From an uncultured virus (IMG/VR IMGVR_UViG_3300035698_026924) (lineage: Duplodnaviria; Heunggongvirae; Uroviricota; Caudoviricetes), in the IMG/VR virus record IMGVR_UViG_3300035698_026924: a DNA stretch of 64,000 nucleotides; one strand, 5' to 3'. Within the stretch, counting starts at the first letter, position 1. The number at the start of each line of letters is the position of its first letter. A program made the translations under genes and the position numbers. This document shows positions 8,402-64,000 of the stretch, piece by piece. Under the pieces are notes generated by a model. The model was not told the DNA's origin and did no database searches. It saw only the letters and a list, made by a program, of their open reading frames with translations.

Positions 8402-8403
8402 CT

Positions 8404-23544: not shown

Positions 23545-23587
23545 GGTTTCTCCTTGTTAATAAAATACCCCAAGATAAATATAAAAT

Positions 23588-23960: not shown

Positions 23961-23984
23961 TACTTTTAAATACAAAGATAACAT

Positions 23985-32420: not shown

Positions 32421-32438
32421 TTTTATAGTACCTAATAA

Positions 32439-33092
32439 GTGAACAGACAAATTATATATCGTCGTGGTTATTTTGGCATTTATGACGTAAATTCTATGAG
32501 AATAGTAGAAGGAATATACGCATTTAATCATTCTAGATATTCTGGTATTTCAGTAGAAAAAGCCTTTCTATTAAAAACCGGAAGAAATCCAAATGAGCAA
32601 GATAAAGATTATTTAGAAAGATTAAAAAACGGGGAAAAAGCACCTCATGGTGTATACGCAAATTGGTATGTCTATGCCTCGCAAAATGTCATAATAAAAC
32701 ATCCGATATTGCCACCATCAACCAAAGAAATAAGGTCAATATCAGAAAGTTTATTAGGCCACAAAATAGAAGACAGGCACATATTATCAATCAATAAAAT
32801 GGTCAGAGAAAAATTGCATGACCTTAGTACAGGATATTACGGAGTAAACATATGGCAAATAATGGAAATAACAGCATCTTTAGAATCGATAAAAACAGAA
32901 AAGTCACAAGAAGCAATTAATTTTTTATTTAATAAAATATATAAAAGAGAACCACAAAAACACGAAGTATCTTTATGCCAAACAATAAACTTAGGCAATC
33001 CAGAGGAAGTTAAAAATGAAATTGAATCGACTATCCAGACTAAACGAAGAGATGTCCTCGTTGCTAGCAGAGGATTCATTAGGGGGCCTTGA
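32439..33092 (+). CDS. Hypothetical protein
   Basis: 217-aa ORF; start uncertain. Confidence 0.7.
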   Translation: MNRQIIYRRGYFGIYDVNSMRIVEGIYAFNHSRYSGISVEKAFLLKTGRNPNEQDKDYLERLKNGEKAPHGVYANWYVYASQNVIIKHPILPPSTKEIRSISESLLGHKIEDRHILSINKMVREKLHDLSTGYYGVNIWQIMEITASLESIKTEKSQEAINFLFNKIYKREPQKHEVSLCQTINLGNPEEVKNEIESTIQTKRRDVLVASRGFIRGP

Positions 33093-38286: not shown

Positions 38287-38894
38287 GATATACCTAAAGA
38301 ATTCTTGTAGGTAGAAATTGACCTTTTAAACTTATCAACATTTTTGATATTATCCTTGAATTTTGCGTCAAAGTATTCAACATATCCATGCCAAAATTCA
38401 GGGCCTTTTAATATTATATAATCAGTGTCAATTTTTGTAGAAACAAATTTTGAAACTTTGTTCATAACCGCTTCTTTTGTTGAATCAATGAATATCATTC
38501 TTTGCGGAATAAACAACATTTTTGGTCTATAAATACTAAAAACTTTATGATAATTCATTTTGTCATAAAGTTGTGATGGAGTATTAGCAACTAGCTCTTT
38601 TGGTATTGATTTTACTATGTCGTCATGATTTTTAGATCTCTTCTTTTCTTCTTTTTCAACTATAACCATGTAGGGATGTTTAGCTAACATGTAATCTTTT
38701 AATTCTTTTTCTTTATTTCTTCTCTTCACTTCATCGTAGATTTCTACCATTTTCTTTTTATTAGAATTACAACTTTCACCAAGTTGCAAATGATTTAGCA
38801 ATTTTTGATATAAGTCAGGAGCTATTCCACGTAAAAATACTTGGAAATTTTTATCACGCGCTAAATTGCAAAATCTATCTTTTAATATCTTCAT
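38283..38894 (-). CDS. Hypothetical basic protein
   Basis: 203-aa ORF, ATGA-coupled. Confidence 0.75.
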   Translation of the reverse strand: MKILKDRFCNLARDKNFQVFLRGIAPDLYQKLLNHLQLGESCNSNKKKMVEIYDEVKRRNKEKELKDYMLAKHPYMVIVEKEEKKRSKNHDDIVKSIPKELVANTPSQLYDKMNYHKVFSIYRPKMLFIPQRMIFIDSTKEAVMNKVSKFVSTKIDTDYIILKGPEFWHGYVEYFDAKFKDNIKNVDKFKRSISTYKNSLGIS

Positions 38895-41197
38895 AATGTT
38901 GGAACAACTATTGATGTTAAATTAGATATGTCTCCAATTGTTCTTATGACATCTCCACTTTTTATTTTGTCCATTATGATATCTGATATAATCTTATCGT
39001 ATTCGACTGTCACAATAGTATCGCCATCCTCAGGTAATCCAAAAAACGTTTCTCCATCTATGGTAGGCCAGGCCAAAGAAACTTGCTCTTTTAGTAGATT
39101 GCTATAATGTTCAATAAATGGAGTATCCTCATACTCACCGCCGCCACAGCTGCAGTCAACGCCAATACTCTTAAATACTACCAAAAATTCATCGCCGTCA
39201 ACATCAACCAATGCGCCACAGCAAGCGTTGGTACGCCATCCTCTTTCATAAAACGATGCGTGCGAAGCACGAATATAAGATTTATTTGGTATATTTATGT
39301 CTGGCAAATCAGACGGACCAAGCTCGCTACATGCTAAGGCATATGTAAATTCGGACTCGGAATTATTAGCAGTTATTACTACTAAAACTTGCGTTCCTTT
39401 AGTGCCTAAATCATCATAATTAAAATCAAGAGTTCCAGATCCAACAACTGAACCAGTAGACCCAACCAAATTTGATGGCATTTCTATAGCTGGGTGATAA
39501 ACATTCAAAGTGCTCGGCTTAGTAAACATGTCATATATGACAGTTATCATGCCTGGAATATTGTTTAAAACATGCACAAGACTCTTGCCTGGAGCTTTAC
39601 CGAATATCAAAAACGACTCATCACATTCTATCGGATTTGGTGAAACGCATGACGACTGAAAACAGGTAGACGGTTGAACACACAAAGTTATACCATTGCC
39701 GACACCAACAGCAGGAATAACTTCTCCATAAAATTCAACCACACCGCCAAAATGTCTAAATGACAAACTGTCGCCTGTATATTTCATTCTGTCTTCGTTT
39801 TTATTAAACAAGCCACGATCATTCAAAGCAACGCTAGCTCTTTCTCCTTTTTCATCAGTATAAACAACGGTAAACACACCAGTTCCACCAACTCCGTTAT
39901 AAAACATACAACAATCTATTATTGTTGCAACATAGTCAAAAGCTGGCAACATTAACTTAACAGATCTTGTTGGGCCAAGATTAGTTTTATCGATTTTTAT
40001 CTGAGCATAACAATCATCACACCCAAATTGCACTGGACTTAAGTCAATGTCACCATTTATTATCACATTTTGATTTGGTGGGCCAATTTTTTCACCAGTG
40101 AAATCGCTTGGAAGCTGTTGTGGTTCATCTCTAGGCTGCGACTTTTCAACTTGATCAGAAACAGAAAACGCATATCCGGCCTGAGCTGCTTGATATCTGC
40201 CATCAGCCCAAATATCTCTAATATTTTGGTTCACTTTTCTTGATACAGCTGCTTCTAGCGCACAACAAACAGCTTCTCTTTGCTGTGCAAATATGTTAGA
40301 TAAGTATTCAATATATCCACCAGCTATTGCTTCCTTTTCTTCCTTCATGCCTCCTGTTATTTTGTTAAATCTTTCTTCTAATTTCTCCAATATTGGTTCT
40401 AAATCAACATATACTAAATTACCAGATGGCACACAATCAGAAACTCCACAATCGAATACTCTATCAGCAAGGCCCAAAATCCAAGGACTATTTTTATTCT
40501 TCCAGTTAACAGTTTTTGGTCCAACTCCTGGATTGCCTATATTACCAATGGTGACAATTATTTTACTAGGATTAGCTTCATCATTTCTAACGTTAACCAC
40601 AGCTTTATTGGTTGGGACACTCTGGTTTAGATCCTCTATTATAGATCCTGGAAAAGGGGCATTTAATCCAGATTGTCCTTCATCGCCTACTGGCCCAGTA
40701 TCAATCCTGTCTTCTCCTGGATCACCCCTGTCACCACGCGGTCCTTGATCACCTTGTATAGAATTAAATCTTAAATTGCCTCTACTTTCAAGTTCACTAA
40801 TCAAATTGTTAATATTTATTTTAAAATCGATTCCAACTGTGTTATTATGGATAATAAAATCTTTTTCTTCCACTTTTCCATCTGGATTGTAAAGTTTTAA
40901 CTTTTCTGATATTTCTATATCATTATTAGAACTTTCTAACGTTATTTTTCCATCAGTAAAAACAGAATCACAATTTTGACCAGTTATAGTAGTGTCAAAA
41001 ACAGGTATTAATATTTCCTGAACTTTAACAAAGTCTTCTGACGACATCAAGCCAGCATCAGTAACAGTTGCTAAACCAAGATTGTCAAATCCGGATATTC
41101 TATTCCAAGAATTAGTAATTGAATCATACTGATACACCACTTCATCATTTACTTGGTATACTTCTCCATTTTCTGGATCTGGCGAAAAGCTAGTCAT
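38891..41197 (-). CDS. Putative tail fiber/virion protein with collagen-like segment
   Basis: Likely start MTSFSPDP; LAT...AGLMSSED motif, GDQGPRGDRGDPG repeat, Cys-rich C-terminal domains. Confidence 0.7.
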   Translation of the reverse strand: MTSFSPDPENGEVYQVNDEVVYQYDSITNSWNRISGFDNLGLATVTDAGLMSSEDFVKVQEILIPVFDTTITGQNCDSVFTDGKITLESSNNDIEISEKLKLYNPDGKVEEKDFIIHNNTVGIDFKININNLISELESRGNLRFNSIQGDQGPRGDRGDPGEDRIDTGPVGDEGQSGLNAPFPGSIIEDLNQSVPTNKAVVNVRNDEANPSKIIVTIGNIGNPGVGPKTVNWKNKNSPWILGLADRVFDCGVSDCVPSGNLVYVDLEPILEKLEERFNKITGGMKEEKEAIAGGYIEYLSNIFAQQREAVCCALEAAVSRKVNQNIRDIWADGRYQAAQAGYAFSVSDQVEKSQPRDEPQQLPSDFTGEKIGPPNQNVIINGDIDLSPVQFGCDDCYAQIKIDKTNLGPTRSVKLMLPAFDYVATIIDCCMFYNGVGGTGVFTVVYTDEKGERASVALNDRGLFNKNEDRMKYTGDSLSFRHFGGVVEFYGEVIPAVGVGNGITLCVQPSTCFQSSCVSPNPIECDESFLIFGKAPGKSLVHVLNNIPGMITVIYDMFTKPSTLNVYHPAIEMPSNLVGSTGSVVGSGTLDFNYDDLGTKGTQVLVVITANNSESEFTYALACSELGPSDLPDINIPNKSYIRASHASFYERGWRTNACCGALVDVDGDEFLVVFKSIGVDCSCGGGEYEDTPFIEHYSNLLKEQVSLAWPTIDGETFFGLPEDGDTIVTVEYDKIISDIIMDKIKSGDVIRTIGDISNLTSIVVPTL

Positions 41198-43107
41198 GAT
41201 AACGATCCCACGCATTTACTGCAATGCGTGACTGATAAGTCGATAGATCCATAAGATTTGTCTCCTTCAACCACTGCTTCTATCATCAGTCTGTCACCAC
41301 TGTTAATTACAGCTCCAACAGCTATTTCTGTGATTGGCCCAAGCTTATATGAACTTTCCACTTCATCTGGATCAAGTGGATTATCATTCAGAGATGATTC
41401 AGGCCATGGTATGATAACTTCCTCCACCCCATCATTTGTATTCTTAAATAATGTTATCACAAGACCTATTGTTTCTCTTCCCGCTCCAACTACGTATCCA
41501 CACGCTGGATTGTCAGAATCATAAATTGTACCACCTATATATTGTATCACATAAGCGCCAGCTTTAAGAGTAGGTCCAGTACTGCTGTCAGTTATCACCT
41601 TAGTCTGACCAGGAGATAAAGAAAATTGGCCAAGTGGTTGAGAAACAGAATCCTGACAAAAGTCTTCAACTTCTGTGAATCCACTAGCTTCAAGTATTGA
41701 CTGAGAAAATTGACATATACCAACTGAATATTGATCATATTGAGAACTTGAAAAGGCCTGAGAAGACACTAAACCAGCATTTTGCGACAGGGTTGACACA
41801 CCATAATCTTGTGTTATTTCGTTGTTAATGCCAACTGCTAAATCGCTATGGCCAGAACTGATAGACAAACCAGAAGCATTAGCAATATCTTCTAATTTAT
41901 CAGCTATGTTATCAAGAGACAAAACAATACTATCACCAGGATTGTTATAGGGGTCTTGCCTCATTTTGCGCAGTTCATTACATTGACATTGACCACAAGC
42001 ACCATTATCAATAAGACTCATGCAGTATTCAAATTTCTCGTGAAATTCTTCATCGCTCAATTTCTGAACTAATGAATCTAATGCTCTTCTAGCTTCTTCG
42101 TCTTTTTTAAATATATATTCTTTTATTTGTTCGTCATATCCTTCTGATGTTTCTATGATCGTTTCTTCGTATTTGTCGATTACTTGATTTATGTAGTCGC
42201 TAAGTCTCTTAGAAACAACTTCCGTGGCATCTGCTTCTTCACAACAGCAGCCAGACGCATTAACCTTAAATCTGACATTTTTGTCTGGATCAAAGTCAGC
42301 ACCAAAAGCAAGAACGTTGTTGTCTAAAGAAGATTCAACTGGATCTGAAGTTCCTGGAATTCTTATTATGTTATAACTAAAATTATCTTCATTGCTAAAT
42401 TCGATATCTCTTGGCAAATTAGCAGCAGTAACTTCACTGGCTGGGGTATTTTCATCTGGTACCAATGCTTCTGATTTAGTAACCGACAAGATAGATCTAT
42501 CACTATCAAGTATGACATCAACGACAGCGGCATTATAATAGGCTTCTGATACTTCTACTTCTATGCCATCAACATGAGACAAGCCGCTGGCATCTGCGCC
42601 TACAAGGCCAGTATCTCCTTTTGGGCCATCACCAGTTCCTGGTTTTCCTGGCTCTCCTTTTGGTCCTTTATACCCCACTGGTCCTTTATTTCCTGGCACT
42701 TCAACGCATACAGTGTCGAGAAATTTTTCACTAAAATTAAAATCAATAGAAGAATTTCGGTTTAGTTCTATGTTTTCTGGCCTAGAATTGCACTCTATAG
42801 ATAGGCTTTCTGAAACAAGCCTTACGTCACCACTAAGAACGCCCTTATAATTATTACTAACAGCTTTTCCATATGAATCACCAGCAATAATACCAAATCC
42901 ACCAGTTCTTTTATGTAATCCATTAATAGTAGATTTTAACTGAGGGCTTAATAATCCAACCTCATTTTGACTTGCCATCGGTATTAATGGCACAAATCCA
43001 TCAAACCTCCAACAATTTGTTTTACTTTCAAATATCCATCTACGACGCCATTTGTCCGTAAATTTCATCCCATCAAAGGGTTTGTTAGGAAATACAGTAG
43101 TAGACAT
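41194..43107 (-). CDS. Putative tail fiber/virion protein with collagen-like segment, paralog of the downstream gene
   Basis: FPNKPFDG, MAS..EVGLLS, GNKGPVGYKGPKGEPGKPG, coiled coil, Cys clusters. Confidence 0.7.
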   Translation of the reverse strand: MSTTVFPNKPFDGMKFTDKWRRRWIFESKTNCWRFDGFVPLIPMASQNEVGLLSPQLKSTINGLHKRTGGFGIIAGDSYGKAVSNNYKGVLSGDVRLVSESLSIECNSRPENIELNRNSSIDFNFSEKFLDTVCVEVPGNKGPVGYKGPKGEPGKPGTGDGPKGDTGLVGADASGLSHVDGIEVEVSEAYYNAAVVDVILDSDRSILSVTKSEALVPDENTPASEVTAANLPRDIEFSNEDNFSYNIIRIPGTSDPVESSLDNNVLAFGADFDPDKNVRFKVNASGCCCEEADATEVVSKRLSDYINQVIDKYEETIIETSEGYDEQIKEYIFKKDEEARRALDSLVQKLSDEEFHEKFEYCMSLIDNGACGQCQCNELRKMRQDPYNNPGDSIVLSLDNIADKLEDIANASGLSISSGHSDLAVGINNEITQDYGVSTLSQNAGLVSSQAFSSSQYDQYSVGICQFSQSILEASGFTEVEDFCQDSVSQPLGQFSLSPGQTKVITDSSTGPTLKAGAYVIQYIGGTIYDSDNPACGYVVGAGRETIGLVITLFKNTNDGVEEVIIPWPESSLNDNPLDPDEVESSYKLGPITEIAVGAVINSGDRLMIEAVVEGDKSYGSIDLSVTHCSKCVGSLS

Positions 43108-43251: not shown

Positions 43252-44973
43252 CTAACCGATCCAAGCTTGACTTAGTTGGTCATATTTCTTAAACGTTGTG
43301 CCGTCAAACCATTCATCTCCTTGAATTGGAGAACGACCTATTAACGATTGTATTCTTGGCAATATGTCATCTTCATAATTAAAATTAGCATTATTGGCAG
43401 TGTTTACCCTGATAACAAAAGACAAAGTAGCAAGAGAACCGCGATACGCTATTGGATTGATATCTTTATTATCAGTGATGTCAGGATTTTCTCTGAAGTC
43501 TACTTCGTCACCCAAACCTTGATCAACTTCAGTTATAAATCTATTATCAGTAGACGGGTGTATTGGTATTTTTCTTCTAGATGTGCTGCCATACAAGGCA
43601 TCAGACTGACCAATAGTTGGTATATTAGGAGGAGTTCTATGCAATGCAAAATCATTAAGACTAGAATTAAAATATCTGCTGGGCGGATTTGCTACTATTC
43701 CTAAAAAACTATCAAAAAAGTCATTGATGGCAGTATTTGTAGCCCATTCTGTGCTTAGTATTACATAACCAGAACCAAAATTCTGATTAAACAACTGAGA
43801 ATCAGCATCTTGATTGTCTCTTAAATTATTTAGTATACCCATTTCCAAGACAGTTCCTGGACCACCAGCGCTTAAAAGACTTCTATCAAGAATTAAACTG
43901 GAAAATTCTATAAGCTCATCAGATGTGCTACCAACAATAGTATTAGTAGTACTAAAAACCATTTTTAACTGATCTGCTTTTACATCTAGACGTTCGATAC
44001 TAGTGCAATATACTGGAAAGTTTTCTTCTGAAGTTCCTTGCTTTCTTTCACCCATAGGTGCATTGATCTGAAATTGACTAAACAACAAAGATGGTATGGT
44101 TGTTTTTTGGTCAGTTGAAACAAGACTTGTCCCATTTCTCCATGGGTAATTTAATGCTTCCAAAACAGCATTCTCATCAACACCTATTGGAGGAACAACA
44201 TTGTAAGCACTCGGTATGTTTAAACCTGTTCCATGAGACATAGGAGCAAACGAAAAATCGTTGTTTACATCTGTGCCACCAGCGCCAGTATCTGTTATTT
44301 CATAATCGATTACATACCCATCACCAGTCGTCTCTTCAAAGGGAGCTAATGCAGCTAAAAATTCAGCATTTTCAACTAAGTCTAATGTTCTAAAGTTAAC
44401 AAATCCAGCAATTGACCCTTCTTGTTCTGTCGGCAATGACGGATCAAATTCAGATACAGTACACGGTTTGACTGTTCTGATTTGGTAAGTTAACGAACTG
44501 TCGATTTCATAATCAACATAAAACATGCCGATTTCAGAAGTGCTACCAATAATATTAGCAGTAAACACAAATCTCATTTTGCCAGTGAAATTGGCTTTAT
44601 CTATGTCACTTTCACCTGGATACCTCTGTATTTTGGCTAGCCTGAGGTTTTCCCAGCTATCATTAAGAGTAATATGCATATCCCATATCCAGGAAGCTGG
44701 CAAATACAGCTGGCTGGTTGAAACATCCACTTGTGCTGGTATTAAGAACGGAAAATTAGACTGATGACTAATTCTAAGACCAAGCTGGTCCAATGATTTT
44801 GCTATAATAAGCTGACGAATAACAATATCAGACATAGGACGATTATAAGTGTCAAAATAATGCGGATCCTCTGGTATCAAGAATCTGACACTCAAAGTAT
44901 CGTTATCGGTTAACGCTGGGAATACATTTCCTGGCGTTACTAATGGAATTAAATTTTCGTCAATTGTTGGCAT
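43252..44973 (-). CDS. Putative virion structural protein
   Basis: 573 aa, acidic, beta-rich, TCAAATATA upstream, in the structural block. Confidence 0.65.
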   Translation of the reverse strand: MPTIDENLIPLVTPGNVFPALTDNDTLSVRFLIPEDPHYFDTYNRPMSDIVIRQLIIAKSLDQLGLRISHQSNFPFLIPAQVDVSTSQLYLPASWIWDMHITLNDSWENLRLAKIQRYPGESDIDKANFTGKMRFVFTANIIGSTSEIGMFYVDYEIDSSLTYQIRTVKPCTVSEFDPSLPTEQEGSIAGFVNFRTLDLVENAEFLAALAPFEETTGDGYVIDYEITDTGAGGTDVNNDFSFAPMSHGTGLNIPSAYNVVPPIGVDENAVLEALNYPWRNGTSLVSTDQKTTIPSLLFSQFQINAPMGERKQGTSEENFPVYCTSIERLDVKADQLKMVFSTTNTIVGSTSDELIEFSSLILDRSLLSAGGPGTVLEMGILNNLRDNQDADSQLFNQNFGSGYVILSTEWATNTAINDFFDSFLGIVANPPSRYFNSSLNDFALHRTPPNIPTIGQSDALYGSTSRRKIPIHPSTDNRFITEVDQGLGDEVDFRENPDITDNKDINPIAYRGSLATLSFVIRVNTANNANFNYEDDILPRIQSLIGRSPIQGDEWFDGTTFKKYDQLSQAWIG

Positions 44974-45003
44974 AGTTTGTCCCAGTAGAATATATTTGAC
45001 AAA

Positions 45004-45240
45004 TTACTTGTCACGTTTTAGAGAGAATTTCTCTTTATTAATTTTGGTTTTGATGTTTTTTGCAATTGCAGACATATGTGCCGATTTTGCATCCACATGC
45101 TTCCAGACATCAGACGCTTTTTTGACATCAGCATGAATCTGATTCCAAGCCACATCTCTATCACCAACAGGAATTGCTTCCAGCAATTTCATTAAATATT
45201 CTGACCCAGAGCTAGTTAGTTTTAAGTATGTATCTTTCAT
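45004..45240 (-). CDS. Hypothetical protein
   Basis: 78 aa, ATGA-coupled. Confidence 0.65.
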   Translation of the reverse strand: MKDTYLKLTSSGSEYLMKLLEAIPVGDRDVAWNQIHADVKKASDVWKHVDAKSAHMSAIAKNIKTKINKEKFSLKRDK

Positions 45241-45638
45241 TTTCTCTTCTTCGGGTCTTTCCTAGCGCAAATGTTACCGCTATATGTTCCATATTCACAC
45301 TTAGTTACCTCCAAATATTTAGAAGGCCCTTTTGTTTCAATCAACAAATTATAAAAGTCACTTACTTCCAACAACAAATCGCTCAAAGCAATGCATAATT
45401 TTATGTTATTCTTTGTTTTTTCCATTTTTTCTTGAATGTCACCGATTAGCACTTCCGTTTTTCTTAATGCTTCGCCACTTGTTACAAAATAACGTGATGG
45501 ATCAATACCGCCAACCTCTTTAAAAGATTTTGACACATCTGGAAACAACCACGCATTTTTAATCTTAGACTCGTCTATTTTATTACCAAGCCTAGTATAC
45601 GGAGTAGAGTCGCAGTCTTTGGGAAAAACCAATATCAT
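45237..45638 (-). CDS. Hypothetical protein
   Basis: Likely start MILVFPKD overlapping the fcl stop. Confidence 0.65.
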   Translation of the reverse strand: MILVFPKDCDSTPYTRLGNKIDESKIKNAWLFPDVSKSFKEVGGIDPSRYFVTSGEALRKTEVLIGDIQEKMEKTKNNIKLCIALSDLLLEVSDFYNLLIETKGPSKYLEVTKCEYGTYSGNICARKDPKKRK

Positions 45639-46561
45639 TTTAATGCTTCCTTTCTGTACCAAGAGACAGTCTTTCGTAAACCGTCTATCAGCTTTACCTT
45701 TGAAGACCAGCCAAGAATATTCTTGGCTTTATTGACATCAAGACAACGTCTATTTTGACCATTCATTTTCATGTTCCATTTAAAATCACCTTTGTATCCC
45801 ATCACATCAGATAAAATTCCAACCAATTCCTTTATGCTAGTTTCTTTTCCAACACCAATATTTATGAATTCATTGGTGCTAACGTCAGATTGAACAGCAG
45901 TCATTATGGCATCAGCACAATCGTTAGCATACAAAAATTCTCTTGATACAGAACCGTCTCCCCATACTTCAACCGTATCATCGCCATTATCAATAGCCTT
46001 TTGTATTTTGTTAATCAATGCTGGTATGACATGCGAATTTTCTAAACCAAAGTGATCGTGTATTCCGTACATATTGACTGGTATTAAATTGACAACATTG
46101 ATGCCATGTTGACTGTTAGCTGCTTGGGCTCCAAATAATCCGTTAAGCTTTGATACTCCATATGCCCTATTAGTTTCTTCTGGCAGTCCATGACACATCA
46201 AATCATCTTCTTTAAATGGTACTGGTGCGTCAGACGCATAACTGCAAACTGTTCCTACCATTACCACTTTTTTTACACAGCAATCAATGCAAGCATCTAA
46301 AACATTAGCTGTTATTCTAGTCGTGGCGGACCATAATTTGTATGGTTCTTTTCTATTTAAATTTATTCCACCACATATAGCAGCTAAATTAACAACGCAA
46401 TCGATTTTGTTTTTTATTATCCATTTGCACAAAGAGTCATAATTGGTAGCATCAATTCCCAATGATCTACTACCACCAACAATTTTTATTTTATTTTGTT
46501 CAAAAACATCAACAACATTTTTACCAAGAAACCCAGTAGATCCCAAAATGCCAACCATCAT
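45635..46561 (-). CDS. fcl: GDP-L-fucose synthase (GDP-4-keto-6-deoxymannose epimerase/reductase)
   Basis: GSTGFLG, LAAICGGI..N, GTVCSY, YGVSK, PVNMYG..DHF...SHVIPALI, VWGDGSVSREFLY. Confidence 0.92.
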   Translation of the reverse strand: MMVGILGSTGFLGKNVVDVFEQNKIKIVGGSRSLGIDATNYDSLCKWIIKNKIDCVVNLAAICGGINLNRKEPYKLWSATTRITANVLDACIDCCVKKVVMVGTVCSYASDAPVPFKEDDLMCHGLPEETNRAYGVSKLNGLFGAQAANSQHGINVVNLIPVNMYGIHDHFGLENSHVIPALINKIQKAIDNGDDTVEVWGDGSVSREFLYANDCADAIMTAVQSDVSTNEFINIGVGKETSIKELVGILSDVMGYKGDFKWNMKMNGQNRRCLDVNKAKNILGWSSKVKLIDGLRKTVSWYRKEALK

Positions 46562-47508
46562 TGCAATCCTCCTTTTATGAACATCGCTACATCTTCTGGC
46601 TGTTTATTATTAAAAGTAACACTGTCAGCATATCCACAGCTTTTCATTTGAATCGATTCAGAAACACCAATCTCAATTATTTTAGGACACGGCTTAGCAC
46701 ATGCTGCAAGCATTGTTATTCCTGACCCAATACCAACAAAGTAGTCACATTTAGATAAAGTTGCTATAGTTCTTCTCCAAGGCATTCCCCTAGCGTCAAT
46801 AGTTCCAGGAATTATTCCTTCATTTTTCCCAGAAAAAGATATGCATTCATATCCAAAACCCCTTACAATATCAACCAGCATCTTGAATTTATCAACTCTC
46901 CACGGAACTGGATGAGAATAGCTATTGTATTCTAAACCAATACACTTCTTTTTGCCAACAAAGGAATTGGCAAAAGCAATGTCTTCCTCAGTAACAGGAG
47001 CATTCAGTTTTCCTCCACCTTTTATTGACCCCTGAGGCCTTACCTCAGCATTATGGAAATACTGATCAGATATTATTGGGTACGACCATTTATGAGAGTC
47101 CCAAATTTCTCCAAACGGGAAAATAGATGGACATAGCACTTGATCAATACCCTTAATTTGCATCATGTGCCTACCAATAGCGAGTCTTTCTTGAGCGTTA
47201 AGAGTGCCATTTATTGAAATTATTTTGTCAAAATCTTTATTATATTGATGAGCGCTATAATAATTGTTACCAACTATAAAAACTATTTTGCAGTCAGGAT
47301 AAATAGTTTTATAATGTCTAGCTATTGGAGTTACATGTAATGTATCTCCAAGATTTCTAGTTTGTTTTATTAAAATCTTATGGCCATTTTGCTTTTTTAG
47401 CCATTCAGCAGCGTCATCAATATTTTGAATAGCAGACTTCAAATTCATAGAATTGACATGCTGTTTCTGTCTTTTTTGGCCTGCATTAGTAACATTTATT
47501 CTTTTCAC
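46558..47508 (-). CDS. GT9-like (heptosyltransferase-fold) glycosyltransferase
   Basis: RNLGDTLHVTPIARHYK..YPDCKI; IDARG; FVGIGSGITMLAA. Confidence 0.75.
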   Translation of the reverse strand: MKRINVTNAGQKRQKQHVNSMNLKSAIQNIDDAAEWLKKQNGHKILIKQTRNLGDTLHVTPIARHYKTIYPDCKIVFIVGNNYYSAHQYNKDFDKIISINGTLNAQERLAIGRHMMQIKGIDQVLCPSIFPFGEIWDSHKWSYPIISDQYFHNAEVRPQGSIKGGGKLNAPVTEEDIAFANSFVGKKKCIGLEYNSYSHPVPWRVDKFKMLVDIVRGFGYECISFSGKNEGIIPGTIDARGMPWRRTIATLSKCDYFVGIGSGITMLAACAKPCPKIIEIGVSESIQMKSCGYADSVTFNNKQPEDVAMFIKGGLQ

Positions 47509-48416
47509 TTTTTAGCTCTTTTAATTTTAAACATATACTTGTTTATTGCTTCTGCTATTTTAGAAGGGCTGTCTGTTTTGATAGATGCTGAATTAACTCC
47601 ATATATTGATTTTACACTAAGCGGTGATCCTATATTGATTTCAATAATATAAGTGCTCAATCCTTCTGATGCTGCTAAAACACTAAGGCCACTGCCACAC
47701 CCAACCACGCAAGCAGCCCTCTCTATCATCACTTTAGCTTGTTTCCATGTACATCCTCTAGCATCGACGCCACCTTCTAGCGGTGGGTCGTCTTTAGATC
47801 CAGTCCATACAACTGGTATATCAAGATTTCTTAATAATTCATTATACTTATCTATTGACCACGTACATTCATGTGGCGGTTTAGATAAAGTATAACTGTT
47901 ATATTCTAAGACAATGTACTGATCGCCTTTTAATCCATGCTTTTGGCAGAATCCGTCATGCCAAGAATAATCGTTAATACCATGAGGGAAACAGGGTCTT
48001 TTAGGAATTTTTAAAGATTTTATGCCACCATTGTGCAAAACATTATCAACAATATTTCCACCTATGTTCCAGCCAGACACACCAACCAGTGGAAATACGG
48101 ATTTAAATAATCCTAAATTATCACAATATTTTTTCCAACCTTGCCTATCTTCTATAGATGCATGAGGCAATGGTAAAACCAACACTCCCAAGCAATTGGC
48201 GGCTTCATCAAATTGCTTGTAATATCTTTCGCTAATTCCCCACACAATATTGTGATTAGGATATTCACTTCTATAATGTCTTACAACAACGGAACTATGA
48301 AGAACATCACCAAAATTACGACATCCTTCAATGAATATAGTTTTATTTTTAGGCCAATCATTATATATTTCAAGAATTTTGTCTATCCTGTCAATACCAT
48401 CTTGATAAAGACTCAT
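47505..48416 (-). CDS. GT9-like glycosyltransferase, paralog of the downstream gene
   Basis: RNFGDVLHSSVVVRHYR..YP; LEYNSY; VDARG; VVGCGSGLSVLAA. Confidence 0.75.
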   Translation of the reverse strand: MSLYQDGIDRIDKILEIYNDWPKNKTIFIEGCRNFGDVLHSSVVVRHYRSEYPNHNIVWGISERYYKQFDEAANCLGVLVLPLPHASIEDRQGWKKYCDNLGLFKSVFPLVGVSGWNIGGNIVDNVLHNGGIKSLKIPKRPCFPHGINDYSWHDGFCQKHGLKGDQYIVLEYNSYTLSKPPHECTWSIDKYNELLRNLDIPVVWTGSKDDPPLEGGVDARGCTWKQAKVMIERAACVVGCGSGLSVLAASEGLSTYIIEINIGSPLSVKSIYGVNSASIKTDSPSKIAEAINKYMFKIKRAKK

Positions 48417-49036
48417 TTTTTTCTCCTCAAATCCCAGTCGTTTTTACTAAAAACAGAAGCTGGATTGCCAATCGCTACATGATTATCAGGAACATCTTTA
48501 ATAACTACAGCACCCATACCGATTATTGAATTTTTTCCTATTTTTATTCCTTCTTTTATCAATGCGCCAGCGCCAATATAGACTTTATTTCCAATATCAC
48601 AATTACCACCAACAGCGGCATTAGGACCAACAGTACTAAAATCACCAATGACAGTGTCGTGTCCAATAGTTGCGTTATAATTAATTAAAACATGACTTTT
48701 AATTGTTGAATTCGGAGCTACAACAGATCCTGGAGCTAATATTGACCCATAGCCAGTAGACCCACAAGATCCATAAGTTTTAGAATCAACATTAAAACAT
48801 TTTCCTATCTTAATCACATCACTCAAATATGGTTCTATTTCTTTCAACATTCTTTCTTTAATATCACATTTTCCTGATCCAAGATATAAATTAGAACATT
48901 CATCTATTTCATTGATTTTGCACGTTCTAAAGCAATGAATATCATTGTTAGTTATTAATTTGGAATATAATCCACTCTTTTCGGCGTATAAATACAATTC
49001 CTTAGCAAATGAACCATCTCCGATGATCACTATCAC
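48413..49036 (-). CDS. PerB/NeuD/PglD-like sugar acetyltransferase
   Basis: IIGDGSFAKE N-terminus, hexapeptide repeats, IGHD, IGMGAVVIKDVP...GNPA. Confidence 0.88.
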   Translation of the reverse strand: MIVIIGDGSFAKELYLYAEKSGLYSKLITNNDIHCFRTCKINEIDECSNLYLGSGKCDIKERMLKEIEPYLSDVIKIGKCFNVDSKTYGSCGSTGYGSILAPGSVVAPNSTIKSHVLINYNATIGHDTVIGDFSTVGPNAAVGGNCDIGNKVYIGAGALIKEGIKIGKNSIIGMGAVVIKDVPDNHVAIGNPASVFSKNDWDLRRKK

Positions 49037-50286
49037 CTAACAATTCCCCAAATTTTGTTTTTTTCAGCTTCACAATTTTTAAAATCATCTCTTGTGTTAT
49101 TGATGCCCATTTGCGTTTTAAATAATTTAGAGCATTGCTTATCCGATGGGGGCTCATTTTTGTCTATCCATTCTTTTAAACCATTAAAGACTTTTATCAT
49201 TTCGTCATTTGTAGGACACCTTAATTTATGAGCCCACATAAAACATTCTTTCTCATGTCCTGGAAACATAGACTGAAGATGTAAATTCTGAGCTTCTTTA
49301 CAATCTGTGAGCTTCTTTCTTAAATCATCAAGTTTTACTTTAGCATTTATTCTGTCTTCTTCACTATATTTTTCTGCTATTTTTCTTGCTTCCTGAACAG
49401 CCGCTGACTTCTCAGCATCAGCTTGTCTCGTGTACATGCCGGAGGTTTTTTCATTTTCAGGAATAGACTTCGTTACTTTGTCAATAGCCTTGTCAAAAGA
49501 CACGTATGGGAATGCTTTTAGAGAACTTTCTTTATTACAATTGTATACATTATAATTCATCTTTTTGAAAGTCCCGTTTAACTCACCAAACCATGCCTTC
49601 ATGCTGTTATAGGTGCTCATATTACCATTAATGCTGCCTCTATTTCTGTCTTGTTCAAAATGATATTTAGTGCTGTTGTCCATATAAAAATCAACACCAA
49701 GAAGATACACATTTCTTATGCCCATGAGATATAAAATTCTCATCGCCGCCATGAAAACAGATCTTCCGCCACCAACTTTTGAATGGTTGCCCCAATTGAT
49801 TGTATCCTCAAACATATATTGATCAGTGTTTACTACTTCATTTCTTCTATAATAAGTAACATTTGGGCAGTCCCCAACTTTTGTATTAACATCTTTCCAT
49901 TCGCCACTATTAAAGAGTCTTTTCTCTATATGAGATATTGGAACAATCTTTTCAATTTTTGGGTCAAGCCAAATAGAAGCCAAAAAGTTAGATGGGCTAT
50001 CAACACAGGTCCACAAGTTTGGTCTAAAGCTAGATGGGCTATTGTTTATACCAATAGTTAAAACCCCAGGCCTACTAAGCTTTTCTTTATCAATTTTTTT
50101 AAAGCTAGGACCACCTGCTATAAGAAATGCGCTACCGCCGTTATACCTATTCAAAGGAATATTAGCTAAATCCTTTGAAAAAAACATAGGCGACGTAGAA
50201 AAGAAGTCACCAAATTTCAAGTCACCATTATCGAAATCAGGACGAAACACATCAACTTTTGCATAGTCTTCTTCAATATTACTCAT
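49033..50286 (-). CDS. DUF115/MptE-like (Maf-type) protein, possible glycosyltransferase
   Basis: FLIAGGPSF, IGINN, WTCVD, LYLMGIRNVYLLGVDF, VYNCNKESSL. Confidence 0.65.
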   Translation of the reverse strand: MSNIEEDYAKVDVFRPDFDNGDLKFGDFFSTSPMFFSKDLANIPLNRYNGGSAFLIAGGPSFKKIDKEKLSRPGVLTIGINNSPSSFRPNLWTCVDSPSNFLASIWLDPKIEKIVPISHIEKRLFNSGEWKDVNTKVGDCPNVTYYRRNEVVNTDQYMFEDTINWGNHSKVGGGRSVFMAAMRILYLMGIRNVYLLGVDFYMDNSTKYHFEQDRNRGSINGNMSTYNSMKAWFGELNGTFKKMNYNVYNCNKESSLKAFPYVSFDKAIDKVTKSIPENEKTSGMYTRQADAEKSAAVQEARKIAEKYSEEDRINAKVKLDDLRKKLTDCKEAQNLHLQSMFPGHEKECFMWAHKLRCPTNDEMIKVFNGLKEWIDKNEPPSDKQCSKLFKTQMGINNTRDDFKNCEAEKNKIWGIVR

Positions 50287-50317
50287 ACAAATAAGTACTG
50301 AAGAAGATCACAAAAGA

Positions 50318-53098
50318 CTAACAGTTTATTTGAAGTTGTCCAAGAACAAATTCATTAAATCCCTTATTTTGATCGCTTATTTTGGCGTCTCTTATCATGG
50401 TGCCTGGCCACATCCTATATCCTATTTTGCCAAGAGGCAAAGAACTAACTGGGAAATAAGGAGTGGTAACAGCTACTGGAACTGGCAATTGCGAAGATGC
50501 AACTTGACTTGGTGTAACCAAGTAACCATTCCACCATATCCATAACTGATTGTCACGTTTCATTACCAGAAAATCATTCCATTTTTCAGTGTCAACACCA
50601 ACTGGATTTGGTAAAAAGCCGCCTTCATAAACTCTGAATTCTTCTGGGTTGGAATCAACATCGGCTCCAATACCATCAGAGATAAAACCAGTCTGAATAA
50701 ACGGATCACTAATAGAAAATTCTCCTGGTAAGAATCCTCTCACATAATCGTCATTAGTTGTTTCTGGATCATTAAGTCCATACGCTGTGCTCATGCTTAA
50801 AGTGCCAGCAATCACCTGCAGTTGAACTGACTCTTGTCCTTGAGTCCTATTAATACTAAATTCTAATCTGACCGCTGGAGCCGTGAAGTCAGAATGTAAC
50901 AATTGAATTACTACAGTGTTTGTTGGAACTGAAACAAGCTCTTGCGGGAATGTTGTTATATCAGTGGCACCAGTAATAGATGTTACAGACGTTATAGATG
51001 TAATATCAGTGACACCAGTTGGACATCCATAGCCAGAATAACTTAATATAAAATCTTCATCAAATGGAAAAATATCATCATAACCAACTAGTATGATATT
51101 GTCTCCATCAAATACCTTAGTCTGATATTTCCAAACAATATCTCTGTAAACGCCTATCAATACCCTCATTGCACCGCTAGATGGAAGATCGCTCCAACTA
51201 ACACCACTAACTTTTATAAACGGAAGATTTGCAAATGGGCCAGTTTCATAAATTCCACGTTCAATAACTTTAGTATAAATATCAGTAACATGATCTATTG
51301 GACCACCAACTATTAAGTCTATAGGTGGAAAAGAATCTTGTTCTGACGTTGGCATACCAATTTTAGATTCAAATAAAAAATTAGCATGGTTTTGTCTATC
51401 CCAAAGCCATATAGGCCTATCACTAACACCAGATGCAGTAACATTCATATTTGTCGCTAATATAGCCAGATCTCTAACATCAATTATTCCGTCTTTGTTT
51501 AGATCAGCATCTTGGTTATAACATTGATCACCTTCAACAGTATTCATTGCGTCCATTAAAATTTTTAAATCTTTATCATCAACAATGCCATCGCCATTGA
51601 TGTCGCCACGATTATCTCTTGGAGTCTCAGTGACTAGCATTCCTGGAATGCCATAATCAATAGTTGCTTGTATCCTATTGTTTACCAGAGTGCCACCAGG
51701 TTCATATTCGTTATCTTCATTAATGCAACCATCATCTGGAAGAAGAAGATTATTTTCTAAATTAGTTATGCCCCACTGGTCCTGTTCAAATAACCTTACA
51801 TCAGAAACATCACTTATAGCTGCTCTTGTCTCTGTTCCAGTGCCGTAGGTTCCTATTTGATGATTTTCTTCATCTCTCTGTTCAAATAAATCACCAAACC
51901 GCACACCGCCAGATAACGACCAAACATGGTCAGGATTCATTTGTGGCTGTTTATTAAAAAATGACTGAAATATTCTAGTTCCGTTTTGTTCGTCAGTTTG
52001 AAACTGATATAATTCTATGATATCCCCAACTTCCAACAGCTGTACAGTTTTATCTAAAGTTAATGACGTTGGAGTTGCATCACCATTTTCTGGATTTGAA
52101 TAATTCCATACATTCTGTGCCATAAAGTCTTCGCCGATAACTTCTGCATCTTGTATAGACCATTTCTTTACTTTATAAAGGTTGTTAGACAATACATTTT
52201 GGTCATAGCCAGTCACAACAGCGTTTATTCTGGTTATTGTTGCCCCGTTATATAATAAAGATCCTAAAAGACCAGGCTCTGATTCTTGATTTAGTTCAAA
52301 CTTTACTTGACGACCTTCATTATCGCTGCCCATAAACCATACGCATTCTGGTATCTGCGCTGGCCCAGGGGTCATTGACCACCCAACATTAGTTTCTAAA
52401 TTGTCTCTTCTTTTTAACACCAGTTCTAATTGTGATGTATTAACATCATTGCCATGTTCATATCTCTTAAATAATAACGCTGGTACTGAACTCTTATTAT
52501 TAAAAAATTCTTCTGGTTTATTAGGATTAAAAATAGTACTTTCTGGATAAGAATATATCTTCATTTCGCCATAACCAGTAATATCTGGCATTATACCATT
52601 ACAACTTGGCGGTCTGACAGCTCTAGTTTCAGACTCATCTTGAATCCAAAAGATTTGAGCACATTCTTCACAATTGCAAGAAAGCGGTATTGGAGAGTCG
52701 ACAGTAAATCTTATTACATTACCAACTCTTTCAAGACTGATAAATTCACTGCCTGCTGCAAGAATAATATCACCCTGCATGAACCCGCCATCATCTGGGA
52801 ATCCAGCTCCTTGAAACCCTAATACACCAAGCCTCATTTGAGTGATAGAGTCTAACCTAGCTTTATCTTCTGCAGACAACAAACCGCGCAAATATTGGCT
52901 GGCTTCTGGAATAGGATCTTCAGCCACATGGGTTGGGCCATGAAAGCTTGGGATAATTATTTGAGATTCTCTACGAATTAAAGTGTTAGTCTCTTTATCG
53001 TATTGATAAGCTGTAGTAGATCCATCTGGGCCTGGGATCTCAATGAACTGCCTATCAACTAGAGAATTAGCGGGTGGAATACCAATAGTTAGTGACAT
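50318..53098 (-). CDS. Large virion-type protein with dockerin-like repeat and Thr/Ser-rich tract
   Basis: RGLLSAEDKARLD fiber motif; GDINGDGIVDDKDL...ADLNKDGIIDVRDL; TDITSITSVTSITGATDITT. Confidence 0.75.
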   Translation of the reverse strand: MSLTIGIPPANSLVDRQFIEIPGPDGSTTAYQYDKETNTLIRRESQIIIPSFHGPTHVAEDPIPEASQYLRGLLSAEDKARLDSITQMRLGVLGFQGAGFPDDGGFMQGDIILAAGSEFISLERVGNVIRFTVDSPIPLSCNCEECAQIFWIQDESETRAVRPPSCNGIMPDITGYGEMKIYSYPESTIFNPNKPEEFFNNKSSVPALLFKRYEHGNDVNTSQLELVLKRRDNLETNVGWSMTPGPAQIPECVWFMGSDNEGRQVKFELNQESEPGLLGSLLYNGATITRINAVVTGYDQNVLSNNLYKVKKWSIQDAEVIGEDFMAQNVWNYSNPENGDATPTSLTLDKTVQLLEVGDIIELYQFQTDEQNGTRIFQSFFNKQPQMNPDHVWSLSGGVRFGDLFEQRDEENHQIGTYGTGTETRAAISDVSDVRLFEQDQWGITNLENNLLLPDDGCINEDNEYEPGGTLVNNRIQATIDYGIPGMLVTETPRDNRGDINGDGIVDDKDLKILMDAMNTVEGDQCYNQDADLNKDGIIDVRDLAILATNMNVTASGVSDRPIWLWDRQNHANFLFESKIGMPTSEQDSFPPIDLIVGGPIDHVTDIYTKVIERGIYETGPFANLPFIKVSGVSWSDLPSSGAMRVLIGVYRDIVWKYQTKVFDGDNIILVGYDDIFPFDEDFILSYSGYGCPTGVTDITSITSVTSITGATDITTFPQELVSVPTNTVVIQLLHSDFTAPAVRLEFSINRTQGQESVQLQVIAGTLSMSTAYGLNDPETTNDDYVRGFLPGEFSISDPFIQTGFISDGIGADVDSNPEEFRVYEGGFLPNPVGVDTEKWNDFLVMKRDNQLWIWWNGYLVTPSQVASSQLPVPVAVTTPYFPVSSLPLGKIGYRMWPGTMIRDAKISDQNKGFNEFVLGQLQINC

Positions 53099-53120
53099 AT
53101 TTACCTCTCATTAAATTTGA

Positions 53121-53384
53121 TTAGGCTATGTTAACTGGCTGCCACACAGCTTGTATCTTACTGATACTCTTTTTAACATATAAGATATTTAAGCGTGTAT
53201 TGTAATAATACTCATCATGGCTATATCTTGGGTCAGGTTCTTTAAACAGCATAGGAACTCTATCTGAACCAAGATGCTCGTTAAGCCAGAGAGATTCACC
53301 ACCTTGAGATGGTATTCCTCTTTTCTCTGACAATGTGTCAAAGAACTGCCTTCTGTTTTCTAATTTGTCGTTTTCAGTGCTCAT
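53121..53384 (-). CDS. Hypothetical protein
   Basis: 87 aa; TAAAATATA upstream. Confidence 0.7.
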   Translation of the reverse strand: MSTENDKLENRRQFFDTLSEKRGIPSQGGESLWLNEHLGSDRVPMLFKEPDPRYSHDEYYYNTRLNILYVKKSISKIQAVWQPVNIA

Positions 53385-53397
53385 CTGAATTTATATT

Positions 53398-54459
53398 TTA
53401 ACTCAAAATTTTGTAATTTGGAATGACATCATGGCAGTCGAAATTAACCATTTCTCTAGCAATATCATTATAGTCAAGAGTTGGCTCCCACCCTAATATT
53501 GATTTCGCCTTAGAATTATCTCCTAAAAGAAAATCAACTTCAGTTGGTCTAAAATATCTAGGATCAATTTCTATCATCAACTTACCATCGACATATCCTT
53601 TTTCATCTAAACCTTCCCCATTCCACTCAAGTTCGTATCCTTTTTCTTTAAAACAAAATTCAACCCAGTTTTTGATCGAGTATGTTTTTGACGTTGCGAT
53701 AACAAAATCATCTGCATTATTTTGCTGAAGCATCATCCACATTGCTCTAACGTAATCATAACTATGTCCTTCATCTCTGAAAGCATATAAATTCCCTAAT
53801 TTTAAAACACCACTTTTATCTTTATTTCCTAACCATCTGGTTACTTTTCTGGTTAAAAATGTCTCTCCTCTTCTGTATGAACTATGGTTAAACAATATCC
53901 CGTTACAAATAAATAGACCGTACGCTTCTCTGTAGTTTTTGCAAATCCAGTATCCATATTGTTTAGCCACGCCATACGGTGATCTAGGATGAAAAGGAAC
54001 ATCTTCGTTATATCCTGCAGATGGCATATTAGATTTTAAACCGCCAAAACATTCCGAAGTACAAGCAAAATAAACTTTTGTTCCTGGAGAATGGATTCTA
54101 ACAGCTTCTATTACTCTAAGAGTACCCAGCGCATCAACATCAGCAGTGTATTCTGGTATCTCAAAAGATACTTTAACATGAGAATTTGCAGCCAATTCAT
54201 ATAATTCGTCTGGTTTTATTTCAGCAATTAGTCTATTAGTGTTGCTGCTGTCAGTGATATCGCCATAATGAAGAAAAAATTTATCATTTTTCAAAGGATC
54301 ATTAATCAAGTGATCATTAATCAAGTGATCAATTCTAGAAGTGTTAAATGTAGAATTTCTCCTTACTACTCCATGTACTTCGTACCCCTTGTCCAACAAA
54401 AAGTCAGCTAAGTGACTTCCGTCCATTCCTGTTATTCCGTATATTAATGCAGTCCTCAT
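53398..54459 (-). CDS. gmd: GDP-mannose 4,6-dehydratase
   Basis: GITGMDGSHLADFLLDKGYEVHG, SHVKVSFEIPEYT, PRSPYGVAK, NGILFNH, YFRPTEVDFLLGD. Confidence 0.97.
   Translation of the reverse strand: MRTALIYGITGMDGSHLADFLLDKGYEVHGVVRRNSTFNTSRIDHLINDHLINDPLKNDKFFLHYGDITDSSNTNRLIAEIKPDELYELAANSHVKVSFEIPEYTADVDALGTLRVIEAVRIHSPGTKVYFACTSECFGGLKSNMPSAGYNEDVPFHPRSPYGVAKQYGYWICKNYREAYGLFICNGILFNHSSYRRGETFLTRKVTRWLGNKDKSGVLKLGNLYAFRDEGHSYDYVRAMWMMLQQNNADDFVIATSKTYSIKNWVEFCFKEKGYELEWNGEGLDEKGYVDGKLMIEIDPRYFRPTEVDFLLGDNSKAKSILGWEPTLDYNDIAREMVNFDCHDVIPNYKILS
54297..54331. repeat. 15-bp in-frame tandem duplication inside gmd
   Basis: GATCATTAATCAAGT twice, giving DHLINDHLIND. Confidence 0.9.
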
Positions 54460-54560
54460 TGTTTATTCCTCGTTGTTGTTTAGTTTAGCGCATTAACATT
54501 TATTTACAAAATTGTATGCTATAAAAGGATTAGTATTTATTAATAACTAAAGGAATATAC

Positions 54561-63991: not shown

Positions 63992-64000
63992 ATTGCTTTC

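Follow-up and report, generated by a model that had tools for sequence, protein, structure and literature searches.

A putative sugar-nucleotide and glycosyltransferase operon in the fiber region of an uncultured giant T4-like phage

Introduction

Glycan systems encoded by viruses are already known, as are glycosylated phage virions and the occurrence of gmd, fcl, and per among viral auxiliary genes. To our knowledge, glycans have been found experimentally on phage particles only in mycobacteriophages. In this work, we analyze a 64,000-nucleotide stretch of DNA, hereafter called the window, from an uncultured virus of the class Caudoviricetes (IMG/VR record IMGVR_UViG_3300035698_026924), in which genes for sugar-nucleotide enzymes and putative glycosyltransferases (GTs) form an operon among genes for fiber-like proteins. 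What is new is a conserved operon in the fiber region of giant T4-like phages, a phage-only pair of GT9-fold proteins, and the exchange of an acetyltransferase for a formyltransferase in the same gene slot.

As described in parts of PMC12619734, mycobacteriophages carry glycans on the capsid and tail tube that alter antibody recognition; their glycosyltransferase genes adjoin structural genes, as here, and the glycans sit on virion proteins made in the cytoplasm. The two systems differ, however, in several respects. Full nucleotide-sugar pathways are encoded in the present phage, and its transferases are GT9-fold and DUF115-like; it is a giant T4-like myovirus rather than a siphovirus of actinobacteria; the neighboring genes are fiber-like instead of capsid and tail-tube genes; and it is known from its genes alone. 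No link could be made between this phage and the "moraphage" lineage, for which the same source gives, in part, four core glycosyltransferase groups. In the literature outside subscription papers, searches for phage perosamine or for virion glycosylation beyond mycobacteriophages returned auxiliary metabolic gene (AMG) listings and reviews only, and no characterized phage perosamine system.

Giant viruses of eukaryotes provide a second precedent. According to parts of PMC9614988, Mimivirus has a UDP-N-acetylviosamine pathway (R141, L136, and L142) and chloroviruses have GMD and GMER, and the glycans decorate virion fibrils or the capsid. The likeness to the present locus lies in a viral 4,6-dehydratase, aminotransferase, and N-acetyltransferase leading to an N-acyl-4-amino-4,6-dideoxyhexose in Mimivirus, and in viral Gmd- and Fcl-type enzymes leading to GDP-fucose in chloroviruses. 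In contrast, these are viruses of eukaryotes, and the Mimivirus sugar is UDP-linked and gluco-configured, whereas the sugar predicted here is GDP-linked and manno-configured, and the transferase families differ.

Among bacteria, the GDP-N-acetylperosamine pathway of Escherichia coli O157 and Caulobacter (Gmd, Per, and PerB) relies on these three families of enzymes, acting in the same order, and it is the source of the best solved-structure matches for the per and acetyltransferase products. Perosamine is the C-2 epimer of viosamine; it occurs as N-acetylperosamine together with L-fucose in the O157 antigen, and N-formylperosamine in Brucella involves a formyl transfer, like the acyl step predicted in one relative of our phage. 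The bacterial route of O157 feeds a Wzx/Wzy-dependent O-antigen built on undecaprenyl phosphate, whereas none of those genes is in the window. Finally, jumbo cyanophages such as P-SSM2 are, according to parts of PMC7824862, large myoviruses whose genes include cupins, paralogous NAD-dependent epimerases/dehydratases, and members of several glycosyltransferase families, polymorphic between relatives, features that recall the present locus. Those clusters have close host homologs and were read there as host-surface modification during pseudolysogeny, whereas here the transferases are phage specific and coupled to fiber-like genes.

Results

Organization of the operon. From position 54459 to position 38283, the minus strand carries gmd, o87, p926, maf417, the N-acetyltransferase gene, GT9b, GT9a, fcl, o133, o78, p573, p637, p774, and p203, in that order (Table 1). 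The coordinates and strand given for all open reading frames (ORFs) in a preliminary description of this DNA were confirmed. Six consecutive 4-nt overlaps connect the genes from maf417 to o78 (GTGA, ATGA, GTGA, ATGA, ATGA, and ATGA), and p573 starts 30 nt past o78; the coupling proposed earlier is therefore present, four of the six overlaps being of the ATGA type noted there and two GTGA. No module protein contains a hydrophobic 19-residue window scoring >1.52 or a membrane segment.

Table 1. Features of the operon, its flanks, and the o87 family (window positions unless a relative's locus is named)
Feature	Coordinates	Strand	Description
gmd	53398..54459	-	GDP-mannose 4,6-dehydratase, 353 aa
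o87	53121..53384	-	small conserved ORF accompanying gmd; no family match
p926	50318..53098	-	large conserved protein, 926 aa, dockerin
maf417	49033..50286	-	putative glycosyltransferase, DUF115/MptE-like (GT42/Maf type), C-terminal helical tail, 417 aa
N-acetyltransferase	48413..49036	-	NeuD/PglB/VioB/PerB left-handed beta-helix family, 207 aa
GT9b	47505..48416	-	GT9-fold paralog, 303 aa
GT9a	46558..47508	-	GT9-fold glycosyltransferase, 316 aa
fcl	45635..46561	-	GDP-L-fucose synthase-like epimerase/reductase, 308 aa
o133	45237..45638	-	ATG start at 45638; ATGA overlap with fcl; orthologs in L001-L003 only; no family match
o78	45004..45240	-	ATGA overlap with o133; orthologs in L001-L003
p573	43252..44973	-	beta-rich, highly conserved; candidate acceptor or partner
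p637	41194..43107	-	fiber-like, short collagen-like Gly-X-Y run
p774	38891..41215	-	fiber-like, short collagen-like runs
p203	38283..38894	-	conserved ORF, ATGA-coupled to p774
per	31335..32531	-	GDP-perosamine-synthase-like DegT aminotransferase, 13 kb from the module
o87-family ORFs in relatives	L001 3974..4249; L002 4249..4470; L003 4232..4471; L009 2565..2789; L017 20163..20408		

Sugar-nucleotide enzymes. The pathways to two sugar nucleotides are very probably encoded by the phage. Gmd passes the equivalog cutoff of TIGR01472 (447.3 bits against 415, residues 3 to 343 of 353) and matches Pfam GDP_Man_Dehyd at 1e-118, which secures its earlier identification. The identity of Fcl also held: its best matches in the PDB are GDP-L-fucose synthases (1.6e-45), and so is its best NCBIfam match (NF047922, 229 bits), which stays below the cutoff of 500. 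Aligned to 7ll6 (GTVC/GSSC, AYGVSK/AYAIAK, and SHVIPALI/SHVLPALI), it keeps the Ser/Thr-Tyr-x3-Lys triad of short-chain dehydrogenases/reductases together with the Cys and His positions, whose roles we take to be those of E. coli GMER.

The aminotransferase (Pfam DegT, 1.3e-78) finds its best PDB matches in the Caulobacter perosamine synthetases (1.9e-58, 201 bits, against 3.4e-48 and 168 bits for the next class), in line with the perosamine-synthase-like call made before. In NCBIfam, LegC (233) and PseC (209) came first, both below cutoff, and no perosamine-synthase model was among the matches. The Pfam scans covered 61 ORFs, all within the 64-kb window, and detected no 4,6-dehydratase other than Gmd; for this reason, the GDP specificity assigned to Per rests partly on context. 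The true start of per is probably internal, because homology begins near residues 36 to 47. In relatives, a pair of genes for a DUF2201 metallopeptidase/VWA-like protein and a MoxR-like AAA ATPase, found at 34032-36558 in the window, is kept adjoining per.

The acetyltransferase, described earlier as PerB/NeuD-like, scores 136.4 bits against the TIGR03570 cutoff of 160.8 (residues 2 to 193) and is thus below it, but family (Hexapep, 1.3e-16), PDB matches (VioB, 2.9e-20; PerB, 1.1e-17), and residues agree on the assignment. In alignments, its "GHD" falls opposite "SHG" and "EHD" of VioB and its homologs and opposite the position mutated in 4eab, and the His-Asp pair is kept; the His is presumably catalytic, as in PglD and PerB. 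Thus, the biochemical half of the earlier proposal, that two branch sugars would derive from the Gmd product, holds at the level of predicted enzymes. Comparison with relatives reinforces this. Per was found in three of the five relatives' records searched, which are exactly those bearing the module, and the acyl slot of one of them, L001, is occupied by a formyltransferase.

Two more distant genes had been listed with the pathway. The ORF at 21155-22015 (286 aa) belongs to the UDP-glucose/GDP-mannose dehydrogenase family, as stated. Both its Rossmann GxGxxG and its catalytic-Cys region ("GGKCFPKD") are retained, but it is without the C-terminal nucleotide-sugar-binding domain. The cupin at 26632-27015 is subthreshold (26.2 against 27.2 bits), with no demonstrated link to sugars. 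Within the operon, o87 may be a partner of Gmd. It follows gmd in all six gmd-bearing loci, including L017, in which both genes are inverted and 8 kb separate them from p926. Its family (73 to 91 aa) shares the motif "EPDPxT..EYYYNTRxNxLYxK".

Transferases. GT9a and GT9b are 27% identical (E value of 3e-25), as expected of the tandem paralogs proposed before, and a GT9 fold is predicted for the 316-residue GT9a. Neither matches the Pfam GT9 family PF01075 at an E value of 0.01, and the only NCBIfam match is one of 24.9 bits to the N-terminal part of TIGR02201. An AlphaFold2 model of GT9a from an alignment of 39 homologs (predicted local distance difference test [pLDDT] of 93.8) retrieved GT9 structures first in Foldseek: 3tov (2.4e-15), WaaF (2e-10), WaaC (8.5e-10), and TibC (2.8e-8). 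The family profile also matches 3tov by sequence (9.6e-8), and an invariant N-L-G-D motif aligns with the Gly-Asp of 3tov and WaaC. GT9b keeps the N-terminal motif RNFGDVLH and has orthologs in L001 to L003. The predicted GT-B fold is closest to GT9 structures and carries their N-terminal Gly-Asp motif, yet identity to WaaC, WaaF, and TibC is only 13-16%, and Pfam scans revealed no genes of the ADP-heptose pathway in the window. GT9a has 43 metagenomic homologs, on contigs of up to 370 kb. Among prokaryotes, represented by one genome per species, 33 stretches matched the GT9a pattern and none was confirmed as a relative, in a pattern-seeded search that may miss distant ones.

The DUF115/Maf-like assignment of maf417 proved weaker than the preliminary description had it. 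Its Pfam matches are subthreshold (PF01973, 23.6 bits against a gathering threshold of 34.6; CST-I, 18.6), and its profile reaches a GT42 sialyltransferase at an E value of 0.44 only; the assignment draws on these matches, on PHROG 4603 ("alpha-2,3-sialyltransferase," 1.5e-8), and on the structural neighbors of its Atlas model (pLDDT of 0.69), which are MptE-like at template modeling (TM) scores of 0.68 to 0.86, depending on the row, and also WaaZ-like. An exhaustive search retrieved 1,304 related clusters. Among the 53 relatives scanned, 11 match the MptE-like PF01973, only below threshold, and 20 carry further transferase domains; GT9 is fused in three (P0219, P0227, and P0271), and the other 17 include GT2, GT32-type, GT8, and GT29. 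These predicted fusions of a maf417-type domain with GT9 mirror the adjacency of maf417 and the GT9 pair in the window. Three transferase-like proteins with conserved catalytic motifs make it plausible that, as proposed before, the phage itself carries out the transfer of the sugars, with no donor assigned to any of the three. Assembly of a glycan by these three proteins is probable.

The source phage and its relatives. An uncultured giant T4-like phage is the source of the window, whose G+C content is about 35%. Besides many ORFs without a Pfam family, the window contains genes for a class II ribonucleotide reductase, ThyA, DHFR, dUTPase, and helicases, and it has no tRNA genes. Neither a megablast search with positions 45000-55000 nor tblastn searches with maf417, GT9a, p573, and p926 found a match among 50,697 phage records. 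Viral contigs scanned with maf417 or GT9a as single proteins likewise gave nothing, whereas alignment-seeded scans recovered viral loci for the GT9a family (4), p573 (8), and p926 (10), spread over 14 different contigs that measure 4.8 to 408 kb (loci are designated L001, L002, and so on). A T4 Gp23-type capsid protein occurs in four of the five relatives' records searched, intact in three (E value of about 1e-79) and split in two pieces in the L003 record, and three of the five encode a tail sheath; neither was detected in the contig behind L008 and L017.

Mapping by tblastn and Pfam revealed a common backbone, hth214-p397-(gmd-o87)-p926-[variable]-p573-...-p637-p774-p203. The whole module is present in identical order in L001, L002, and L003 at 48-67% identity, with these exceptions. 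L001 has a formyltransferase (Formyl_trans_N, 8e-23; ArnA-like and dTDP-amino-sugar formyltransferase-like) in the acetyltransferase slot, and L002 and L003 are without fcl and have per at the end of the block. The fcl gene occurs in the contigs of L001 and L011 and in a complete 395-kb relative, there about 20 kb from p573; it adjoins p573, on either side, in three of the four fcl-bearing relatives. Other glycan genes recur at the same place: in L011, p573 has a GT10-like gene on one side and fcl on the other, with a GT9a homolog just past the fiber block of the same contig; in L017, GT8, mannosyltransferase-like, and GT9 genes and the gmd-o87 pair lie within 8 kb of p926; and GT2 genes are near p926 or p573 in L012, L018, and L022. 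This survey of flanks covered 115 of 163 ORFs, small and distal ones being dropped.

Fiber-like neighbors. The preliminary description had called p926 and p573 structural-type genes, which was not borne out: p926 combines a dockerin with a fiber-like motif, and p573 matches no known fold. In p926, a Cys-rich N-terminal part with the fiber-like motif precedes a type I dockerin (residues 498 to 550; Pfam Dockerin_1, 3.9e-6; profile against PDB dockerins, 2.1e-7), a Ser/Thr-rich linker at residues ~692 to 722, and a beta-rich C-terminal part; identity across three relatives is 53-68%, with a linker of variable length. The dockerin is of the canonical type, and no cohesin-like partner was identified. 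The widespread p573 family comprises 158 homologs of uniform length. Its AlphaFold2 model (pLDDT of 83, predicted TM score of 0.48) gave no significant fold match in the PDB, where the best hit, among beta-sandwich proteins, had an E value of 4e-4 but a TM score of 0.08, and nothing at 0.001 or better in BFVD; the Atlas model (pLDDT of 0.31) is uninformative. Both p637 (tail-fiber PHROG families at 1e-5, residues 138 to 171) and p774 (PHROG 10972, tail fiber, 1.2e-4) have N-terminal motifs resembling "GLLSAEDKARLD" of p926.

Other genes around the operon and in related loci. Divergent from gmd, at 54561-55505, lies an adenosine deaminase homolog (Pfam, 4.5e-41; TIGR01430, 153 bits, below cutoff) that is kept in L001, L014, L015, L016, L018, and L021. 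Farther on, the window encodes a BNR_2 (sialidase-like beta-propeller) protein at 60443-61462 (2.1e-18), which is a candidate virion protein for binding or cleaving glycans, and an ORF at 61781-64000 (>736 aa), in a G+C-rich stretch (0.445), with about 14 hydrophobic segments in near-perfect Ala/Gly/Leu repeats of about 60 residues; this ORF has no family match and looks like a tape-measure-like or internal membrane-active protein.

Among the relatives, the complete 395-kb genome encodes a release factor homolog (PCRF and RF-1 domains), a GNAT protein, and a patatin-like phospholipase at L009 5724-8281, in the interval that separates p926 from p573. Mom-family (adenine-modifying) proteins are encoded beside gmd/p926 or directly upstream of p573 (L001 2451-3983, L008 8433-10013, and L012 5401-6261), and in three relatives the gene immediately upstream of gmd encodes a LAGLIDADG homing endonuclease (L002 2263-3189, L003 2246-3166, and L017 21442-22374). 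Near p573, L008 carries a Cas3-like protein of 879 aa (12983-15622; HD domain, helicase, and Cas3 C-terminal domain) and a TnsA-like endonuclease (3639-4889); the 247-kb record behind it is classed as a provirus by its source. On a 371-kb viral contig, the GT9a homolog of L004 is inside a large glycan cluster (505-10879) with a left-handed beta-helix acetyltransferase, a GT29-like sialyltransferase, KdsA (256 bits, cutoff of 242), a PseF/KdsB-like cytidylyltransferase, a DHDPS-like aldolase, two GT2 genes, and several methyltransferases. The thymidylate synthase match in the L001 record (22939-24540) consists of two parts, separated by some 770 nt in a single open frame of 540 aa, which suggests an in-frame insertion, e.g., an intein or an endonuclease domain.

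Discussion

The explanation that we favor is that the phage makes its own glycan and places it on its own virion. Gmd would convert host GDP-mannose into GDP-4-keto-6-deoxymannose; Fcl would turn part of this product into GDP-L-fucose, and Per with the PerB/VioB-type acetyltransferase would turn the other part into GDP-N-acetylperosamine, steps that are well supported. Three soluble transferases would then build a short glycan in the cytoplasm, the DUF115/GT42-like enzyme possibly with a CMP-activated ulosonic acid, e.g., host CMP-Kdo (3-deoxy-D-manno-octulosonic acid), with the two phage-specific GT9-fold enzymes beside it. The acceptor would most likely be a conserved protein of the fiber module near the operon (p926, p573, or the collagen-like p637 and p774), and the glycan would leave the cell on the virion. 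The grounds for a virion acceptor, our leading idea, are the soluble enzymes, the coupling to fiber-like genes, the phage specificity of the transferases and their conservation at about the level of p926 and p573, and the recurrence of glycan genes beside these two proteins; we put it at a little under even odds. Furthermore, relatives exchange acetyl for formyl and gain or lose fucose while keeping the transferases, which suggests selection on an exposed surface.

In its full form, this explanation describes a swappable, self-sufficient O-glycosylation cassette in the fiber block, by which the phage would dress its own fiber or baseplate proteins with N-acyl-perosamine, fucose, and perhaps Kdo; a phage-only branch of the GT9 fold would have switched from lipid to protein acceptors, and relatives would vary the glycan as bacteria vary their O-antigens. 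We give this full form a probability of about 0.4.

Several observations weigh against a virion acceptor. Promoter-like sites (78, against 69.4 ± 8.4 in shuffled sequences) and terminator-like sites (9, against 8.4 ± 2.9) are at chance level, so cotranscription is inferred from the overlaps only. No transferase is present in the examined flanks of 6 of the 15 contigs with p926 or p573 (the window counted), nor in the p926-p573 gap of the complete 395-kb relative, and the Mom-family, LAGLIDADG, and Cas3-like genes of other relatives stand at the same borders; such unrelated cargo means that the co-location may reflect a permissive insertion site. The presence of fcl is unrelated to transferase number, two relatives (L002 and L003) being without it although they keep all three transferases, and so no transferase can be tied to fucose. 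Additionally, the virion role of p573 and p926 is indirect, because p573 is without a recognizable fold and no homology to the T4 long tail fiber was found; when compared with T4 gp34-gp38 in hhalign, none of the p926, p573, p637, p774, and p203 families exceeded a probability of 1.2%.

A further argument concerns export. The genes that mark a Wzx/Wzy- or ABC-dependent locus (an initiating phosphoglycosyltransferase or other lipid-carrier transferase, a flippase or transporter, and a polymerase) are, as stated in the preliminary description, absent among the 61 ORFs scanned with Pfam, the sole polytopic-looking ORF being the repetitive Ala/Gly/Leu protein. The use made of this absence, as an argument for a virion acceptor, turned out to be weak. 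The lipopolysaccharide (LPS)-core transferases WaaC and WaaF, which have the closest folds, act at the cytoplasmic face and leave export to the host. Since transferases of the core type depend on the host in this way, a missing flippase does not tell the hypotheses apart.

This brings forward the strongest alternative, remodeling of the host envelope, in which the soluble transferases would add sugars to the nascent LPS core or another lipid-linked glycan at the cytoplasmic face, and the host would export the product, blocking superinfection or keeping progeny off infected cells and debris. Its case includes the folds closest to GT9a among the matches listed, which include LPS-core heptosyltransferases as well as the protein-modifying TibC; the DUF115/GT42 relatives, among them lipooligosaccharide sialyltransferases and a cluster of WaaZ Kdo transferases; and the L004 homolog of GT9a, which is accompanied by KdsA and a CMP-sugar synthetase, an LPS-core-like sugar set. 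The varied glycan cassettes among relatives would also fit selection on a receptor surface, and parts of PMC7824862 read the sugar clusters of jumbo phages and cyanophages as host-surface modification. On the other hand, the GT9-like pair appears phage specific and old, with no relative confirmed by pattern-seeded search of species-representative genomes and a Pfam GT9 model blind to both proteins, and it is conserved about as well as p926 and p573, whereas a host-specific acceptor would favor recently captured host genes. In a lytic phage of the T4 type, the coupling to fiber-like, presumably late genes would leave only a short time in which LPS could be exported, and Pfam scans of the window revealed no integrase or lysogeny gene. 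We rate envelope remodeling as a contender, although less likely than a virion acceptor.

Another alternative is an accessory, moron-like island that landed in a permissive gap and whose glycan ends up elsewhere, either on a host protein or small molecule or as an oligosaccharide that is free or secreted. The cargo of the same gap in relatives (RF-1, patatin, GNAT, Mom, homing endonucleases, and the Cas3-like gene) agrees with it, and so do the DUF115-like relatives found in long multitransferase proteins typical of polysaccharide synthesis. We consider it unlikely, since gene order, the paralog pair, and the small ORFs are kept across four phages at 48-67% identity, translational coupling into p573 is tight, and fcl so often adjoins p573.

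Glycosylation of modified bases in the phage genome, as in the glucosylated 5-hydroxymethylcytosine (5hmC) of T4, had been offered as a further alternative and is weakened to a very small chance: the lineage is T4-like and some relatives have Mom-family genes beside gmd or p573, but the window has a single thymidylate synthase homolog, which is a genuine ThyA (383 bits, cutoff of 327) adjoining DHFR; PF00303 has one match or none in the five relatives' records, with no second homolog in any and none at all in the complete genome of 395 kb; Pfam scans of the window detected neither a hydroxymethylase nor a TET/5mYOX or C5-methyltransferase; GT9a groups with GT9 folds, T4 beta-glucosyltransferase being absent among the 50 matches listed, although a distant likeness is still possible; and the module is within the fiber block, away from nucleotide metabolism. 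We keep this small chance because phage GT-B enzymes that add Kdo and heptose to 5hmC exist (as parts of bioRxiv 10.1101/2023.12.21.572611 describe) and the analysis covers the window only.

Under any of these explanations, the module is predicted to be a compact soluble enzyme set for GDP-N-acetyl- and N-formyl-perosamine, together with a new branch of the GT9 fold. If the target were host LPS, phage-specific core transferases in a lytic phage would likewise be new. If virion glycosylation by this cassette is true, a widespread uncultured lineage of giant T4-like phages makes rare sugars from scratch and puts them on its own fibers. Virion glycosylation would then extend to a second, very different phage group, in parallel with the giant viruses of eukaryotes, and the sugar AMGs (gmd, fcl, and perosamine synthase) that are counted in viromes, e.g., in a table of PMC8226683, would acquire a function.

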